Source: Streptosporangiaceae bacterium
GTDB taxonomy: Bacteria; Actinomycetota; Actinomycetes; Streptosporangiales; Streptosporangiaceae
DNA length: 32,000 nucleotides
Direction: 5' to 3'
NCBI GenBank assembly: GCA_035308365.1
Contig: DATGGU010000012.1
Span: forward strand, 93,161 to 125,160
The notes under the pieces are model-generated. The model was not told the origin of the DNA and made no database searches. It saw only the letters and a program-made list of their open reading frames with translations. Numbering within the stretch: position 1 is the first letter of the stretch; every line of letters begins with the position of its first letter. Positions 16,308-21,319 of the stretch are shown piece by piece. Position numbers and translations under genes: made by a program.

Positions 16308-16748
16308 ATGCGAGGGCGTTCCGGCCGCTCCTGCTGTGCCCAGGAACCTTCCCTGGGCACCGCCGACCGGTACCTGACCGGGGAGCGGCGCCGGGTCATG
16401 GTGCGCCGGGCGATCCTGGTTGTATCGGCCGCACTATTTGTGGCGGCCGTCACGATATCGGCGTCAGGGGTGGGGCAGGCGGCGCTCGCTCACCGATTGT
16501 GCTGGGGGTCTGCCATCTGCGCGTCCGGCCTTGCGGCCACCTGGATCCGGCAGGCGATGACCACCGGGCGGCCCGGCTGGCGGCTGCTGGCCGCGGTGGC
16601 CGCGGTGGCCGCCGGCATCGCCTGGCAGCCGGTCATCCCGGCGGCCGCGGCCGTCGCCGCGCTGACCGAGCACACGCTGCGCCGGGGCGCCGTCCCGGTG
16701 CTCACCGCGCGAGCCGGTTCCCGTCAGGTAGCCAGGACGAACGGCTGA
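16308..16748 (+). CDS. Small hypothetical membrane protein
   Basis: ATG at 16308 lies 4 nt after a strong SD (GAAGGAGG). It has three hydrophobic, Ala-rich segments, high GC3 in the distal two-thirds and an N-terminal CC pair. I recognised no family. Confidence 0.45.
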   Translation: MRGRSGRSCCAQEPSLGTADRYLTGERRRVMVRRAILVVSAALFVAAVTISASGVGQAALAHRLCWGSAICASGLAATWIRQAMTTGRPGWRLLAAVAAVAAGIAWQPVIPAAAAVAALTEHTLRRGAVPVLTARAGSRQVARTNG

Positions 16749-16771
16749 CTCCGGTGTCCTCGTTCGTCTTC

Positions 16772-17434
16772 ATGAAGCTCCTTGAGACCCGGGCATCCCG
16801 CTACGACCGCGGGATGCGGTTGCTCACCTTCGGCCGGATCGGCGGGCTGTACCGGGCGATCGCCGGGCACATCCCACCGGGCAGCGAGGTCCTGGAGATC
16901 GGCTGCGGCACCGGCGGGCTCACCGCCGAACTGGCCGGCCGAGGCTGCCGGGTGACCGCGGTCGACCGCTCCCCCCAGATGCTCGCGATCGCCGCGCGCA
17001 AGCTGGCAGAGATCGATACGGCCGCGAGCCCGCGGCTGCTGCCCCTGTCGATCACCGGCCTGGACCGGACGTTCGGTGCCGGCGCGTTCGACTACGTCGT
17101 GAGCTGCCTGGTACTCAGCGAGCTGACGGCCACAGAGGAACGCTACGCGCTGGACTGCTCCGTCCGGCTGCTGCGCCCGGGCGGTGGCCTGGTGATCGCC
17201 GACGAGGTGCTGCCAGCGAACCCGGTGCGCCGGGTGATCTATCATGCGACGCGGCTGCCGGTGGCGGCACTGGCCTACCTGCTGACCCAGACGTCGAGCC
17301 ATCATCTCCGCGACATCGACGGCAAGCTGCGCAGCCGGGGGCTGGAGGCGGTCGAGCGGACGACGTTGCAGCACGGCTCGTTCGCCATCGTGGCGGGGAG
17401 GAAGCCGGCATGCCGTCTGCAGCCCCAGAAGTGA
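16772..17434 (+). CDS. Class I SAM-dependent methyltransferase
   Basis: SAM motif I is VLEIGCGTGGLT. It also has the acidic post-I loop (VTAVDRSPQML) and LLRPGGGLVIAD. Start is ATG at 16772 (GTG at 16754 as an alternative). The 3' end overlaps the next gene by 25 nt. Confidence 0.8.
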   Translation: MKLLETRASRYDRGMRLLTFGRIGGLYRAIAGHIPPGSEVLEIGCGTGGLTAELAGRGCRVTAVDRSPQMLAIAARKLAEIDTAASPRLLPLSITGLDRTFGAGAFDYVVSCLVLSELTATEERYALDCSVRLLRPGGGLVIADEVLPANPVRRVIYHATRLPVAALAYLLTQTSSHHLRDIDGKLRSRGLEAVERTTLQHGSFAIVAGRKPACRLQPQK

Positions 17435-18507: not shown

Positions 18508-20511
18508 GTGACCTCAGTGAGCCTCACATCCGCTCCGGCTAAGCCCCGGCCGGCCGGTGGCCTGTTCGGCGAGGCCGATCTCAGCCAGGAGCGTCTGCTC
18601 CACCGGAACTTCACCTTCCTCGCCGTGTCGGCGCTGTGCATGGGCTCCAGCGGCCTGATCGCGCTGTGGGGCAAGTCCTCGGTGCCGTGGACCGGCGCCG
18701 GGCACGTGATCAGCTTCATCGGGCTGGCGCTGGGGCTGCCGATGTACTGGATCGCGGTCAAGACCGTGATCCTGGCCCGTAACAAGCTCACCACCGAGGT
18801 ATTCATCACCATCGCCCTGGCGGCCGTCGTCTATGAAGGTCAGTACTGGTACGCCGCCTGGGTGGTGTTCATCCTGTGGCTCGGCGAGACGTTGATGGCC
18901 TGGGCGGGCAGGCAGGCCCGGTCGGCGGTGGGTGCCCTGCTCGGGCTGATCCCCCGGGAGGCCCGCGTGGCCGGCCCGGACGGAACCCGGATGGTCCCGG
19001 TGGAGCAGGTGGAGGTCGGCGACGTTGTCGTCGTCAACCCCGGTGAGCGGATACCGACCGACGGCATCCTCGTACAAGGCGAGACGACGGTGGACGAGTC
19101 CATGATCACCGGGGAGGCGGTGCCCGCGGATCACGCGGTGGGCGATCACCTCTACGCCGGCACGGTGAACCTGCACGCCACGGTCCGCATCCGGGCAACG
19201 ACGACCACCGAGGACAACACCGTCGCCAGCATCGTCACGCTGATGCGGCAGGCGCAGGCCGCGCACATCCCGGCCAAGCGGACCGTCGATCTGTTCCTGC
19301 GCTGGTTCCTGCCGCTGGTTCTGCTCAGCGCGGCCGTCACCGGCTTCCTCACCGGGTCACTCGAACGGGTCGCCGCCATCCTGCTGGTGATCACCCCCTG
19401 CGCGTTCTCCGCGTCGACGCCGCTCGCGCTGATCGCCACCATCGGCGTCGCGGCCCGCCTGGGCATCGTGATCAAGGGCGGCACCTGCATCGAGGCGCTG
19501 AGCCGGGTCAGCGTGGTGCTGCTGGACAAGACCGGCACGCTGACCGCGTCCACCCCGCAGTTGTCGGTCATCGAAGCCATCGGCCGCACCGAGGACGAGG
19601 TTTTGACCGTCGCCGCGATCGCGGAACGGCCATCCAGCCACCCGCTGGCCCGGGCGGTCTGCGCCGCGGCCAGCGAGCGGGACCTGGCCGTGGTTGACCC
19701 GGATGAGTTCGAGCTGGCCAGCGGGCACGGCGTCATCGCCAGCTACGCCGGGCACCGGATCGCGGTCGGCAGTGCCCGGTTCCTCGACCGCCGCGACGAT
19801 CTTGTAGTACCCGGCTCGGTACGTGACCGGGCGGCCAGCCTGGAGGCGGCCGGATACACCATCGCCTACGTCCTCGAACAGGACACGGTCATCGGCATAC
19901 TCGGATTCCTCGCCCAGCCCCGGGCCAGCGCGTCGGCGGTCATCGCCGGACTGCGCGATCTGGGGATACGCCAGCTGATCATGGTCACCGGCGACCGGTC
20001 CCGTCCGGCCCGCGCGGTGGCGGCCCAGCTCGGCATCGAGCACGAGGCCGAGGCGACCCCGGCGGGCAAGCTCAGCATCGTCCGGCGGTGGCAGGACGAG
20101 GGACATACCGTTGCCATGGTCGGTGACGGGATCAACGACGCCACCGCCCTCGCCGCCGCCGATGTCGGTATCGCCATGGTGAGCGCAGGCGCGGAGGTCT
20201 CGGCGCTGGCGGCTGATGTCGTCATCCATGGCGATCGCCTGTCACGCGTGCTGGCGGCGGCCCGGCTGGCCCGGCGCGGCACCAACACCATCAAGACCAA
20301 CATCGTCTTCGCCACCGGCTACAACCTCATCGGTCTCGGGCTGGCTCTCACCGGCGTGATAGGTCCTGGTGAGGCGGTGCTTTTCCACTGCGGAAGCTTC
20401 ATCTCGGTGGTGCTCAATTCCGCCTTCATGCTCGGCTACGATCCGAAGCTTCCCGATGAGCCGGCCGACGATAAGGAGCCATCGTCGCAGCTCATCGCCA
20501 CCGCCGCATAG
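18508..20511 (+). CDS. P1B-type heavy-metal-translocating ATPase (TPC motif, no N-terminal HMA domain)
   Basis: ITGEA, DKTGTLT, SSHPLA and GDGINDATALAAADVGIAM. The TM motif is VITPCAF (TPC at 19393-19401) in place of CPC. There is no CxxC/HMA domain before TM1. Start is GTG at 18508 or 18517, after GAAGGAAGGA. Confidence 0.9.
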   Translation: MTSVSLTSAPAKPRPAGGLFGEADLSQERLLHRNFTFLAVSALCMGSSGLIALWGKSSVPWTGAGHVISFIGLALGLPMYWIAVKTVILARNKLTTEVFITIALAAVVYEGQYWYAAWVVFILWLGETLMAWAGRQARSAVGALLGLIPREARVAGPDGTRMVPVEQVEVGDVVVVNPGERIPTDGILVQGETTVDESMITGEAVPADHAVGDHLYAGTVNLHATVRIRATTTTEDNTVASIVTLMRQAQAAHIPAKRTVDLFLRWFLPLVLLSAAVTGFLTGSLERVAAILLVITPCAFSASTPLALIATIGVAARLGIVIKGGTCIEALSRVSVVLLDKTGTLTASTPQLSVIEAIGRTEDEVLTVAAIAERPSSHPLARAVCAAASERDLAVVDPDEFELASGHGVIASYAGHRIAVGSARFLDRRDDLVVPGSVRDRAASLEAAGYTIAYVLEQDTVIGILGFLAQPRASASAVIAGLRDLGIRQLIMVTGDRSRPARAVAAQLGIEHEAEATPAGKLSIVRRWQDEGHTVAMVGDGINDATALAAADVGIAMVSAGAEVSALAADVVIHGDRLSRVLAAARLARRGTNTIKTNIVFATGYNLIGLGLALTGVIGPGEAVLFHCGSFISVVLNSAFMLGYDPKLPDEPADDKEPSSQLIATAA

Positions 20512-20626
20512 CCGCATCGGCGGTCCGTATTCGGCGCACTATTAGAATGATCTTTGCGCATAGCTGCTTGAGCTGCGGTGACGCTGCCGGCTGGAAGGAT
20601 TGGAATAAGGATCTTAGGATCGTGGC

Positions 20627-21319
20627 ATGGAACGCTCCTCGCCAGCCAATTCGCCGGGCCAAACCGGAGATCTCGTCAGGTCGACTCTGCCCAGCCGCCA
20701 GCTGGAGCTTTCGCCGGTCCTGCGCAAGTTCCACCGCGCCATTCTTAACCTTTTTCTCAGCACCGGCCGGCCCCCGGGGCACAATGAACTGCGGGCACCG
20801 GCCGCTGAGCTGGGACTGGACGCCGGCGAGGCGATGCGCGAGCTGGCCCGGGTGGACCTGGTGCACGCCGACGCCGGCGGCCGCATCACTGTGGCCTACC
20901 CCTTCTCGGGCGACGACCGGGGGATCCACGTCCAGCAGGCCGATGGCCCGGGTGTGTGGGCGATGTGCGCCATCGACGCCCTCGGCATCCCGCAGATGTC
21001 CGGCCGCGACGTGGTGATCACCGCCACCGATCCGGCCAGCCACGAACCGGTCACCGTAGAATCGCGCGACGGCCAGCTAACCTGGCAGCCGCGCAGCGCC
21101 GTCGTCCTGGTGGCGAACAACGGCCACAGCGGGACCAGCGCCGAGTGCCTCTGCCCACTGATCACATTCCACACCACCGAGCAGAACGCGCTTGACCACC
21201 TCGCCGCCCAGCCCGGCGTCACCGGCCAGGTCGTGTCCCAGGCAAAGGCATACGAACTCGCCGGAGCCACCTTCGGCTCCCTGCTCACCAGCCAGCCCGA
21301 ACCCGCCCCCGAGCGCTAA
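20627..21319 (+). CDS. Alkylmercury-lyase (MerB) family protein with an N-terminal HTH-like domain
   Basis: VWAMCAIDALGIP matches the MerB Cys96-x-x-Asp99 region. AECLCPLITFH matches the Cys159 region. The N-terminal LSPVLRKFHRAILNLFLSTG resembles the MerB HTH-like domain. Confidence 0.75.
   Translation: MERSSPANSPGQTGDLVRSTLPSRQLELSPVLRKFHRAILNLFLSTGRPPGHNELRAPAAELGLDAGEAMRELARVDLVHADAGGRITVAYPFSGDDRGIHVQQADGPGVWAMCAIDALGIPQMSGRDVVITATDPASHEPVTVESRDGQLTWQPRSAVVLVANNGHSGTSAECLCPLITFHTTEQNALDHLAAQPGVTGQVVSQAKAYELAGATFGSLLTSQPEPAPER

Follow-up and report, generated by a model that had tools for sequence, protein, structure and literature searches.

In a 32,000-nucleotide (nt) stretch of the genome of a Streptosporangiaceae bacterium (contig DATGGU010000012.1, positions 93,161 to 125,160; the whole stretch is called the window here, and positions are counted from its first letter), five codirectional genes on the plus strand span positions 16308 to 21319. 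A reading made from the letters alone, which we call the sequence-only reading, had described them as one unit, a possible organometal(loid) system combining a methyltransferase, a corrinoid protein resembling the mercury-methylating HgcAB, a metal pump, and a lyase resembling MerB. The first gene (16308 to 16748) encodes a small membrane protein of 146 amino acids (aa), and the second, which starts with GTG at 16754 or ATG at 16772 and ends at 17434, encodes a CpaM class I S-adenosylmethionine (SAM) methyltransferase (NF043040; 226 aa from the GTG). They are followed by the genes for an HgcAB-like fusion protein of 362 aa (17410 to 18498; NF043039, with Pfam CdhD and 4Fe-4S dicluster domains), a P1B-type ATPase of 667 aa (18508 to 20511; TIGR01525), and a MerB-family carbon-metal lyase homolog of 230 aa (20627 to 21319; Pfam PF03243). 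The gaps are 5 nt (from the stop codon of the small open reading frame [ORF] to the GTG of the methyltransferase gene), −25 nt (an overlap), 9 nt, and 115 nt; the last three spacings and the family identities had all been given correctly by the sequence-only reading.

The window has a G+C content of ~69%, and third-position GC in each of the five genes lies between 0.84 and 0.91, which supports all five ORFs as coding. The same five-gene order recurs in two related loci, L095 (ATPase 91% identical) and L091 (74%), so the arrangement exceeds what chance would produce. A terminator scan gave no more sites in the window than in shuffled sequence and none in the 115-nt gap before the MerB-like gene. 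No RNA family was returned by an Rfam scan of the window, and thus no cobalamin or SAM riboswitch precedes the operon. A 75-nt gap 5′ of the operon holds a promoter-like and operator-like region on the plus strand (16229 to 16292), and farther downstream, also on the plus strand, lies an ArsR/SmtB-family repressor gene (24537 to 24917) with an operator-like site at 24519 to 24538.

A methyltransferase and an HgcAB-like fusion protein

The methyltransferase scored 254.5 bits against the CpaM model NF043040 (cutoff, 180) and carries the SAM motif VLEIGCGTGG. The fusion protein scored 301.8 bits against NF043039 (cutoff, 285), with residues 25 to 362 aligned to model positions 2 to 350 of 350, and as in most loci of that family a CpaM gene lies upstream, here with the 25-nt overlap. 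The corrinoid-binding CdhD domain covers residues 36 to 157. Its cap helix reads NVWCASAGG and keeps the cysteine (Cys91); the corrinoid protein is HgcAB-like, as had been proposed. A Fer4 dicluster domain at residues 307 to 362 provides a 2x[4Fe-4S] ferredoxin (Cys314-325 and Cys346-356), all eight Fe-S cysteines of which are invariant. Between the two domains, an AlphaFold2 (AF2) model of low confidence (predicted local distance difference test [pLDDT] score, 58), which served for helix counting alone, predicts four long helices at residues 174 to 277; this even number would return the ferredoxin tail to the cytoplasm together with the corrinoid domain.

Judged by its sequence, the fusion is not an HgcA and belongs to the HgcAB-like family. 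Against the HgcA model NF040863 it scored 130.8 bits (cutoff, 275), with only model positions 28 to 172 of 325 aligned, and its cap helix matches none of the six accepted HgcA motifs, N(V/I)WC(A/S)(A/G/S)GK (PMC10087281). The ferredoxin is fused and is not a separate HgcB with Cys73 and a C-terminal CC. The fusion ends with CPVDAIS right behind the second Fe-S motif, without the C-terminal CC of HgcB, and it has neither a CC nor a CU motif ahead of the corrinoid domain. True HgcA carries such motifs in its N-terminal extension and HgcB at its C terminus, and Haft (bioRxiv 10.1101/2022.07.06.499078) took them for heavy-metal ligands.

We looked for relatives in one genome per species, across 185,579 species, and found 502 relatives of the fusion; 80 loci were examined, and others were reached through protein look-ups. 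Clustering of six-frame ORFs from the 80 loci was noisy in high-GC DNA and was replaced by targeted tblastn. A CpaM homolog lies directly 5′ of the fusion gene in 71 of the 80 loci, and 4 of the 9 exceptions lack room on the contig. Loci with both genes span Chloroflexota, Myxococcota, Acidobacteriota, Asgard archaea, and Bathyarchaeota. The sequence-only reading was right about the pair, in which the methyltransferase is an obligate partner of the HgcAB-like protein. It is not undescribed, however: the pairing is already named in NCBIfam, as uncharacterized, and hence is not new. Fused HgcAB proteins were described as early as 2015, and those of their carriers that were tested showed no mercury methylation (PMC4646819, PMC10087281).

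Outside the clade of the window (see below), no metal gene recurs beside the pair. Inspection by eye placed a TetR-like ORF in 23 loci of Myxococcota and related groups, mostly just 5′ of the pair, and from representative sequences an amidase, a short-chain dehydrogenase/reductase, an enoyl-coenzyme A (CoA) hydratase, and CysK were recognized as other recurrent neighbors. In a metagenome-assembled genome of Thermoanaerobaculales, the CpaM and HgcAB-like pair occurs twice in tandem (L009, 613 to 5569). Three HgcAB-like loci of Chloroflexia are without CpaM and have an ArsR-family gene just 5′ instead (L047, 6822 to 7091; L071, 6680 to 6916; L080, 7648 to 7854).

A clade in which the pair is joined to a Cys-Cys protein and a pump

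The fusion of the window belongs to a clade whose members share 62 to 99% identity and are ~35% identical to the rest of the fusion family. We compared 13 nonredundant loci of this clade, namely, the window, L001 to L005, L081 (Streptomyces sp. CNQ-509), L082 (Lentzea flaviverrucosa), L087, L089, L091, L092, and L095. The gene order is Cys-Cys protein, CpaM, fusion, and ATPase, and in all 13 loci the fusion gene is followed by the gene for the same pump (61 to 91% identity), 9 to 110 nt behind. The contig P0009, known from its gene table alone, has the same arrangement. That the genes form one conserved unit had been claimed from the window, and the core order in the relatives bears this out. 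The claim stands for the four-gene core and not for the MerB-like gene, which follows the pump gene in only three of the 13 loci (the window, L091, and L095). What is conserved is thus a core of four genes, to which a variable cysteine-rich fifth gene is added, and the five-gene composition is lineage specific.

The small protein at the head of the operon, for which neither Pfam nor NCBIfam gave a family match, has a vicinal Cys-Cys pair at residues 9 and 10 (nt 16332 to 16337), followed by an Arg-rich stretch and then by hydrophobic stretches which are apparently transmembrane. In each of the 12 actinobacterial loci whose upstream DNA is intact, a homolog with an invariant CC lies directly 5′ of the methyltransferase gene. 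This protein could supply the heavy-metal-binding role of the HgcA and HgcB CC motifs, which are missing from the fusion. The fusion has a cysteine pair of another kind, Cys287 and Cys293 (CKQQLLC), just after the fourth transmembrane helix (TM4); both residues are present in 100% of 44 clade members and absent from other clades. These clade-specific cysteines arise exactly where the pump is acquired. The soft-ligand features specific to the clade are thus the invariant CC, Cys287/Cys293, and the TPC, YN, and FHxxS motifs of a pump without a heavy-metal-associated (HMA) domain. By charge distribution, all the clade-specific ligands are predicted to face the cytoplasm, which fits cytoplasmic metal capture and expulsion.

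The ATPase is of P1B type, with 504 bits against TIGR01525 (cutoff, 346). Its motifs are TGE at 201, TPC at 296, DKTGT at 340, GDGIND at 539, GYN in TM5, and FHCGS in TM6, and it has a conserved N-terminal GLFGEADLSQERL. It had been called a TPC-type pump, correctly, as TM4 reads ITPCAF. The site holds a single cysteine (Cys298) together with a conserved TM6 histidine, and FHAAS replaces FHCGS in relatives. We found no HMA domain, other metal-binding domain, or C-terminal domain in the pump, and against the copper and cadmium subfamily models it was below the cutoff or matched at subfamily level only. Among the described P1B subgroups, 1B-1 is marked by CPC, YN, and MxxSS, 1B-2 by CPC, K, and DxG, 1B-4 by SPC and HEGxT, and 1B-5 by TPCP and a hemerythrin tail; N-terminal HMA domains occur in P1B-1 and P1B-2. 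Measured by these signatures, the pump appears to fit none of subgroups 1, 2, 4, and 5. Membership in P1B-5 was considered and rejected, as the pump has no TPCP motif and no hemerythrin tail.

The pump subfamily is discrete: 53 clusters share at least 52% identity with the pump of the window, after which identity falls to at most 42% and the score drops from 652 to 374 bits. The number of pump clusters with at least 56% identity (47) is close to that of HgcAB-like clusters in the clade (~46). Sister-group pumps (52 to 55% identity) without an HgcAB-like gene were seen in L094 (7480 to 9462) and in L093 (915 to 9162); the latter has two paralogous pumps, each near a GntR/YmtS_Ross regulator gene, which suggests that the regulator-pump pair predates its union with the corrinoid pair.

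The fifth gene: MerB-family lyase or DUF169 protein

The last gene of the operon encodes a protein which, by sequence and predicted fold, is a genuine MerB-fold, MerB-family protein of an actinobacterial subfamily. It scored 92.7 bits against PF03243 (cutoff, 27), and the family profile of its subfamily matches MerB in the PDB at E = 4e-30; a PDB search with the single sequence had given only a spurious cyanovirin match, and the family profile was needed to reach MerB. Cys114, Asp117, and Cys176 correspond to Cys96, Asp99, and Cys159 of MerB and do not vary among 30 subfamily members. For the AF2 model (pLDDT, 88), the first 11 PDB matches are all MerB or MerB2 (E from 3e-12 to 2e-6; TM-score, 0.51 to 0.74). 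NCBI names a protein identical to that of the window "alkylmercury lyase family protein." The MerB equivalog models of NCBIfam were missed (NF009710, 56.4 versus 193 bits; NF033555, 50.1 versus 200 bits). We rejected the conclusion that a score below these cutoffs means that the protein is not MerB, since the MerB encoded right behind merA in Lentzea, a member of the same subfamily, also fails them (68.6 and 68.4 bits); the two models therefore under-call the actinobacterial subfamily. The protein is also not a SaoL, with 41.8 bits against NF040728 (cutoff, 140), a CLC motif in place of CU, and no SAO genes as neighbors. The proposal of a MerB-like lyase thus holds for the fold and the Cys/Asp/Cys triad and fails for its place as a conserved member of the cassette.

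Two variants of the cassette can be told apart. Variant B (the window, L091, and L095) lacks both the GntR regulator and the DUF169 gene, the MerB-family gene occupies the slot behind the pump, and cytochrome P450, pyridoxal phosphate (PLP)-dependent decarboxylase, major facilitator superfamily (MFS) transporter, glycosyltransferase, and ArsR-rhodanese genes surround the cassette. Variant A comprises the other 10 actinobacterial loci, all with a divergent GntR/YmtS_Ross regulator gene and with a DUF169 gene right behind the pump gene (for example, L082, 13174 to 13896; L081, 13191 to 13898; L087, 13219 to 13929; L089, 9194 to 9955; L092, 12944 to 13654). The DUF169 proteins in the slot share five invariant cysteines and one invariant histidine, and sequence searches found no solved relative of DUF169. 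On this pattern DUF169 is a candidate metal-binding protein or analogue of the MerB-like lyase. A second DUF169 copy in Lentzea (L082, 3191 to 3895) adjoins another ArsR gene.

The shared promoter region of variant A has a TTGTCCTA...TAGGACAA-type palindrome in L081, and L082 has the TAGGACAA half-site with adjoining bases. Between the GntR/YmtS_Ross gene and the Cys-Cys protein gene we noted an inverted repeat, TTGTCCTA...CCATTGACATAGGACAA (L081, 8770 to 8830; L082, 8800 to 8830), which by its position is a candidate GntR operator of variant A. A literature search for "YmtS" returned no relevant paper.

Linkage to mercury resistance genes and putative ArsR control

A genuine merA gene lies within 8 kb of the core in 7 of the 13 clade loci (L001 to L004, L081, L082, and L087), each time with an ArsR-family gene beside it; the MerA of Lentzea scored 563 bits against TIGR02053. 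In five of the seven loci merB is also within 8 kb. By a rough estimate, the chance of finding merA within 8 kb of a random actinobacterial gene is ~0.001. Several clade loci are on conjugative or transposable elements, as seen from type IV secretion system coupling proteins, Tn7-like TniQ/TniB, insertion sequence elements, and a group II intron. In the window itself, a tblastn search with Lentzea MerA found no MerA, no MerR-family homolog was found, and the HMA/MerP motif MxCxxC is absent from all six frames; the window lost merA or never had it. The statement that the locus is not a mer operon is thus true of the window and incomplete for the cassette, with the core so often close to merA and an ArsR-type regulator. 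ArsR-type repressors control mer in Streptomyces lividans, and mer operons of the ArsR type tend to be without merT and merP (PMC3466566).

The ArsR protein of the window is 62 to 77% identical to those encoded near the cassette in other loci, six of which are divergent from merA (L001, L003, L004, L081, L082, and L087). After the general family, its next-best model is the Cd/Pb sensor CmtR, below the cutoff. Upstream of the operon lie a −35/−10-like pair (16229 to 16258) and an ArsR-operator-like 19-mer that occurs twice, at 16234 to 16252 and 16268 to 16286, as part of a 24-nt direct repeat; a perfect palindrome, ATCATGgcggCATGAT, lies between the repeats at 16254 to 16269. The string RTATTCGYC occurs within the 32 kb only at the two repeats, 16234 and 16268. 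Similar imperfect palindromes are present in the ArsR-merA intergenic regions of L001, L003, L004, L081, and L087.

We built a position weight matrix (PWM) from seven ArsR-merA intergenic sites picked by eye, none of them from the window. Its top four hits in the window were at 16268 (22.7 bits), at 24519/24520 (18.4 to 18.9 bits), and at 16234 (13.8 bits), compared with a mean top score of 9.9 and a maximum of 18.5 in 30 shuffles; as the sites were chosen after the window repeat had been seen, the operon-upstream hits are partly circular and the ArsR-proximal ones less so. The same two places, 5′ of the operon and 5′ of the ArsR gene, are scored in L095, and the best hits in L005, L082, L002, and L096, which were not in the training set, lie 5′ of their own ArsR genes. 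L091 has another palindrome and no ArsR-type motif, so ArsR control is not universal for variant B. From these motifs we infer that the regulon of a mer-type ArsR repressor includes the operon in the window and in L095, and the repressor encoded at 24537 to 24917 is its probable regulator.

Interpretation and alternatives

The reading that we prefer, as a possible rather than a probable one, is that the products of the operon act together at the membrane on a thiol-seeking metal, with mercury the likeliest candidate, and combine methyl transfer and export within a mer-type regulon. The gene content, the close coupling, the conserved four-gene core, the cysteines specific to the clade, the links to mer genes and mobile elements, and the common operator-like motif are observed; corrinoid binding, the loading of cobalt from SAM, which metal is handled, in which direction it is moved, and any methylated product are inferred parts of the reading. 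Metal in the cytoplasm would be captured by cysteine pairs, the CC of the small protein and Cys287/Cys293 of the HgcAB-like protein. CpaM would load a methyl group from SAM onto the Co(I) corrinoid, with the fused ferredoxin domain keeping the corrinoid reduced, and the methyl group would pass from the corrinoid to the bound metal, as in the action of HgcA on Hg(II). The P1B ATPase would then expel the metal or its methylated form, and the MerB-family lyase would cleave organometal that stays in or reenters the cytoplasm, a task that DUF169 may have in most relatives. As a speculation, the single-thiolate site of the pump would suit monovalent R-Hg+ better than Hg(II). A more specific version holds that this is a mobile, mer-regulated machine of culturable soil actinobacteria (Streptomyces, Lentzea, Actinocrispum wychmicini DSM 45934, and Rhizocola hellebori NBRC 109834 among the carriers), in which mercury or another thiophilic metal, held by cysteine pairs, receives a methyl group from a corrinoid protein loaded by SAM, a P-type ATPase exports the product, and MerB or DUF169 serves as a cytoplasmic safety lyase. 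In that full form we regard the proposal as unlikely.

A number of observations weigh against the preferred reading. Methylating mercury gives a more toxic product, and the cultured carriers of fused HgcAB, Pyrococcus furiosus and Methanococcoides methylutens, made no methylmercury. A single cysteine in the membrane site of the pump is unusual for Hg(II). In 75 nonclade loci, tblastn found no recurrent pump, DUF169, or mer genes, and since the pair occurs there without metal genes, its ancestral substrate may not be a metal. The most divergent pump members, the sister group, likewise occur without an HgcAB-like gene. Most relatives carry their own GntR/YmtS_Ross regulator and operator and not a metal sensor. 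The window has no merA, is surrounded by selenium genes, and is one of only three loci in which a MerB-like gene follows the pump. The AF2 model of the fusion is poor, and the motif evidence 5′ of the operon carries the circularity described above.

As an alternative, the linkage would reflect a shared resistance island and no joint pathway, with the pair methylating a nonmetal, the ATPase an ordinary exporter, and the MerB-like protein part of a separate set with ArsR, PLP-decarboxylase, AMP-ligase, and exporter. We consider this rather unlikely. It would account for the nonactinobacterial loci, which keep only the pair and no metal genes, and for a 59%-identical MerB-like protein whose gene directly follows that of an ABC exporter, where genes for ArsR, an AMP-binding protein, and a PLP-decarboxylase are close by and an HgcAB-like gene is missing. 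It also agrees with the pump paralogs of 52 to 55% identity found without HgcAB-like genes, among GntR/YmtS, SARP (BTAD), ArsR, PLP-decarboxylase, and P450 neighbors, which the window and L091 share. Against it stand the pump order in 13 of 13 loci and the Cys-Cys protein before CpaM in 12 of 12, both invariant despite changing surroundings, the matching cluster counts of the pump (47) and the clade's HgcAB-like protein (~46), and the appearance of the fusion cysteines where the pump was acquired.

A somewhat smaller chance is given to another soft metal(loid) (Se, Te, As, Pb, Sn, or Cd) as the substrate in place of mercury, with methylated species made or exported. MerB-family sites can hold other metals (Haft 2022). 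The pump site, with one cysteine beside His, Asn, and Tyr, is no classic site for Hg(II), the next-best match of the ArsR protein is the Cd/Pb sensor CmtR, although below the cutoff, and the operon sits between senA/senB and a selenocysteine (Sec)-type selD, near an ArsR-rhodanese gene, in an arrangement that is kept in L095. The 10 variant A loci, however, have no selenium genes, 7 of them having merA instead, and L091 has no senA, senB, or selD within 10 kb. The suggestion of selenium made by the sequence-only reading therefore fared poorly: as a substrate, selenium is without comparative support and rests on the neighborhood in the window's own lineage. P1B ATPases are not known to transport oxyanions of Se, As, or Te; MerB-family enzymes, in turn, have no known physiological nonmercury substrate.

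Still less credit is due to the idea that the product of the module is a toxin, methylmercury or a different organometal, which the pump exports and against which MerB or DUF169 gives self-immunity; we think this improbable. The idea of methylmercury as an antimicrobial was raised in 2023 (PMC10083202), a lyase beside a producer is the classic immunity layout, and biosynthesis-like genes (P450, glycosyltransferases, MFS exporter, SARP-family regulator, MbtH, and radical SAM) surround the operon in both the window and L091. Yet no mercury methylation was seen in those carriers of fused HgcAB that were tested, the cap helix matches no accepted HgcA motif, and most relatives are in resistance islands on mobile elements and not in biosynthetic clusters. 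A housekeeping role, in which the pump moves Co(II), the corrinoid protein and methyltransferase handle the cofactor, and no toxic metal is transformed, seems highly improbable. It would give a plain reason for a corrinoid protein beside a P1B pump that has no metal-binding domain and a thiol-poor membrane site, and P1B-4 cobalt pumps are also without a metal-binding domain. The pump lacks the SPC and HEGxT signatures of P1B-4, however, and the Cys-Cys protein, Cys287/Cys293, the MerB/DUF169 slot, the merA linkage, and the ArsR sites would be left unexplained.

Relation to described systems

The arsenic methylation cycle of ArsM, ArsP, and ArsI likewise joins SAM-dependent methylation of a toxic element to export of the methylated species and to cleavage of the carbon-element bond by a lyase, and offers an analogy only: the proteins are unrelated apart from the class I methyltransferase fold, no corrinoid is involved, and the genes are not normally in one operon. 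With HgcA and HgcB the fusion shares a homologous corrinoid domain with the cap-helix cysteine (NVWC), a membrane anchor, and a 2x[4Fe-4S] ferredoxin partner. It differs in having four predicted transmembrane helices, compared with the five reported for HgcA, and in its partner, a SAM methyltransferase, which true hgcAB loci lack. Its host differs too, being a soil actinobacterium that is presumably aerobic. The closest described entity is the CpaM/HgcAB-like pair (NF043040/NF043039; "fused HgcAB" of Podar et al. 2015), with the same architecture of corrinoid domain, transmembrane helices, and 2x[4Fe-4S] domain. At ~35% identity to the rest of the family, the window clade adds Cys287/Cys293, the Cys-Cys protein, the pump, the DUF169/MerB slot, and the mer linkage, none of which occurs in the 75 nonclade loci.

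Among mercury resistance systems, the Streptomyces lividans-type mer operon (ArsR, merA, and merB) shares with the window the ArsR repressor, the operator-like motif, and the MerB subfamily; the window, in contrast, is without merA, merT, and merP, and its ArsR appears to govern the corrinoid/pump operon. The SAO (selenocysteine-assisted organometallic) locus (Haft 2022) combines transporters, metal efflux, and a MerB-like lyase, has CC and CU motifs that were interpreted as ligands of heavy metals, and was proposed to form and cleave an organometal, as we propose for the window. It differs in having nine genes, in its occurrence in anaerobes, in ABC uptake, non-P-type efflux, and several selenoproteins, and in having no corrinoid protein. 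In Nitrospina, according to a figure legend (bioRxiv 648329), HgcA-like genes adjoin MerR, a UbiE-type methyltransferase, DUF169, and a YHS protein; as far as that legend goes, it is the nearest published description of such a neighborhood that we found. Papers mention the fusion of Streptomyces sp. CNQ-509 solely as a match in BLAST searches or to root a tree.

In the searchable literature, which is incomplete, we found no account of the pump-coupled cassette, the Cys-Cys protein, the DUF169/MerB slot swap, the merA linkage, or the ArsR motif, which agrees with the earlier statement that no characterized system has such a composition. What appears to be new is the actinobacterial clade which joins the pair to a Cys-Cys protein and a dedicated TPC-type P1B ATPase; the CpaM/HgcAB-like pair is not.

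Fused HgcAB-like genes are common in metagenomes and have been set aside, as proteins of unknown function whose tested carriers do not methylate mercury. Here is a clade in which they are hard-wired to a heavy-metal pump and Cys-pair proteins, and linked to mer on mobile elements in over half of the loci examined. What HgcAB-like proteins do can therefore be tested in cultured, presumably aerobic actinobacteria, and DUF169 gains a testable role as a possible MerB analogue. The clade also bears on how hgcA-like sequences from soil are counted in mercury risk surveys. If the more specific version of our reading is true, this would be the first function for the fused HgcAB-like family, and either a new form of mercury resistance, methylation-coupled efflux, or an unrecognized source of organomercury in oxic soil. 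With this locus and its relatives, experiments can also address whether organisms outside the anaerobic guilds make or process organomercury.

Surrounding genes

The context had been described as selenium genes on both sides of the operon with two ArsR-family genes, and this description was accurate. Upstream, at 3907 to 7257, lie the selenoneine genes senA (NF041186, 481 bits) and senB (TIGR04348, 360 bits). Pfam matches nothing in about 350 N-terminal residues of the senA ORF, so the gene probably starts farther downstream, or this stretch holds another gene. Downstream, selD (26225 to 27286) has an in-frame TGA at the catalytic Sec position (LTQFSSGAG*ACKFAP), which makes it a selD of the selenocysteine type in an actinobacterium; no selenocysteine insertion sequence (SECIS) or Rfam element was found for it at the gathering threshold. 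In the five operon genes no Sec codon is evident. Besides the repressor gene at 24537 to 24917, the second ArsR-family gene is fused to a rhodanese domain (8522 to 9178).

A set of genes recurs around these loci, consisting of ArsR-family genes (one rhodanese fused) and genes for a PLP-dependent decarboxylase, an MFS_3 exporter, P450, a SARP-family (BTAD) regulator, and glycosyltransferases. It is found in the window (8522 to 14728), L091 (676 to 3495 and 15382 to 21077), L087 (17684 to 21077), L094 (1749 to 5933), and L097 (1495 to 4868), and it accompanies the pump or the MerB-like subfamily even where there is no HgcAB-like gene. This neighborhood may be a cluster for a metal-responsive metabolite, perhaps a metallophore.

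Directly 5′ of the ArsR gene, a membrane protein of 181 aa (23933 to 24478) has the motifs CGYDGCE and GCALFFPID and a DUF6410 hit below the cutoff; it is kept at the same place in L095, and no other cassette locus has it. Near the cassette in both the window (123 to 734) and L091 (18135 to 18986), both of variant B, is a gene for an ABC substrate-binding protein of the phosphonate type (Rv1680 family; weakly matched by the "putative selenate ABC" model). Convergent with the MerB-like gene, on the minus strand at 21536 to 23521, is the gene for an acyl/aryl-CoA ligase (AMP-binding) with a C-terminal extension of ~140 aa that has no Pfam match, and AMP-binding genes recur near the MerB-like genes of L091 and L096.

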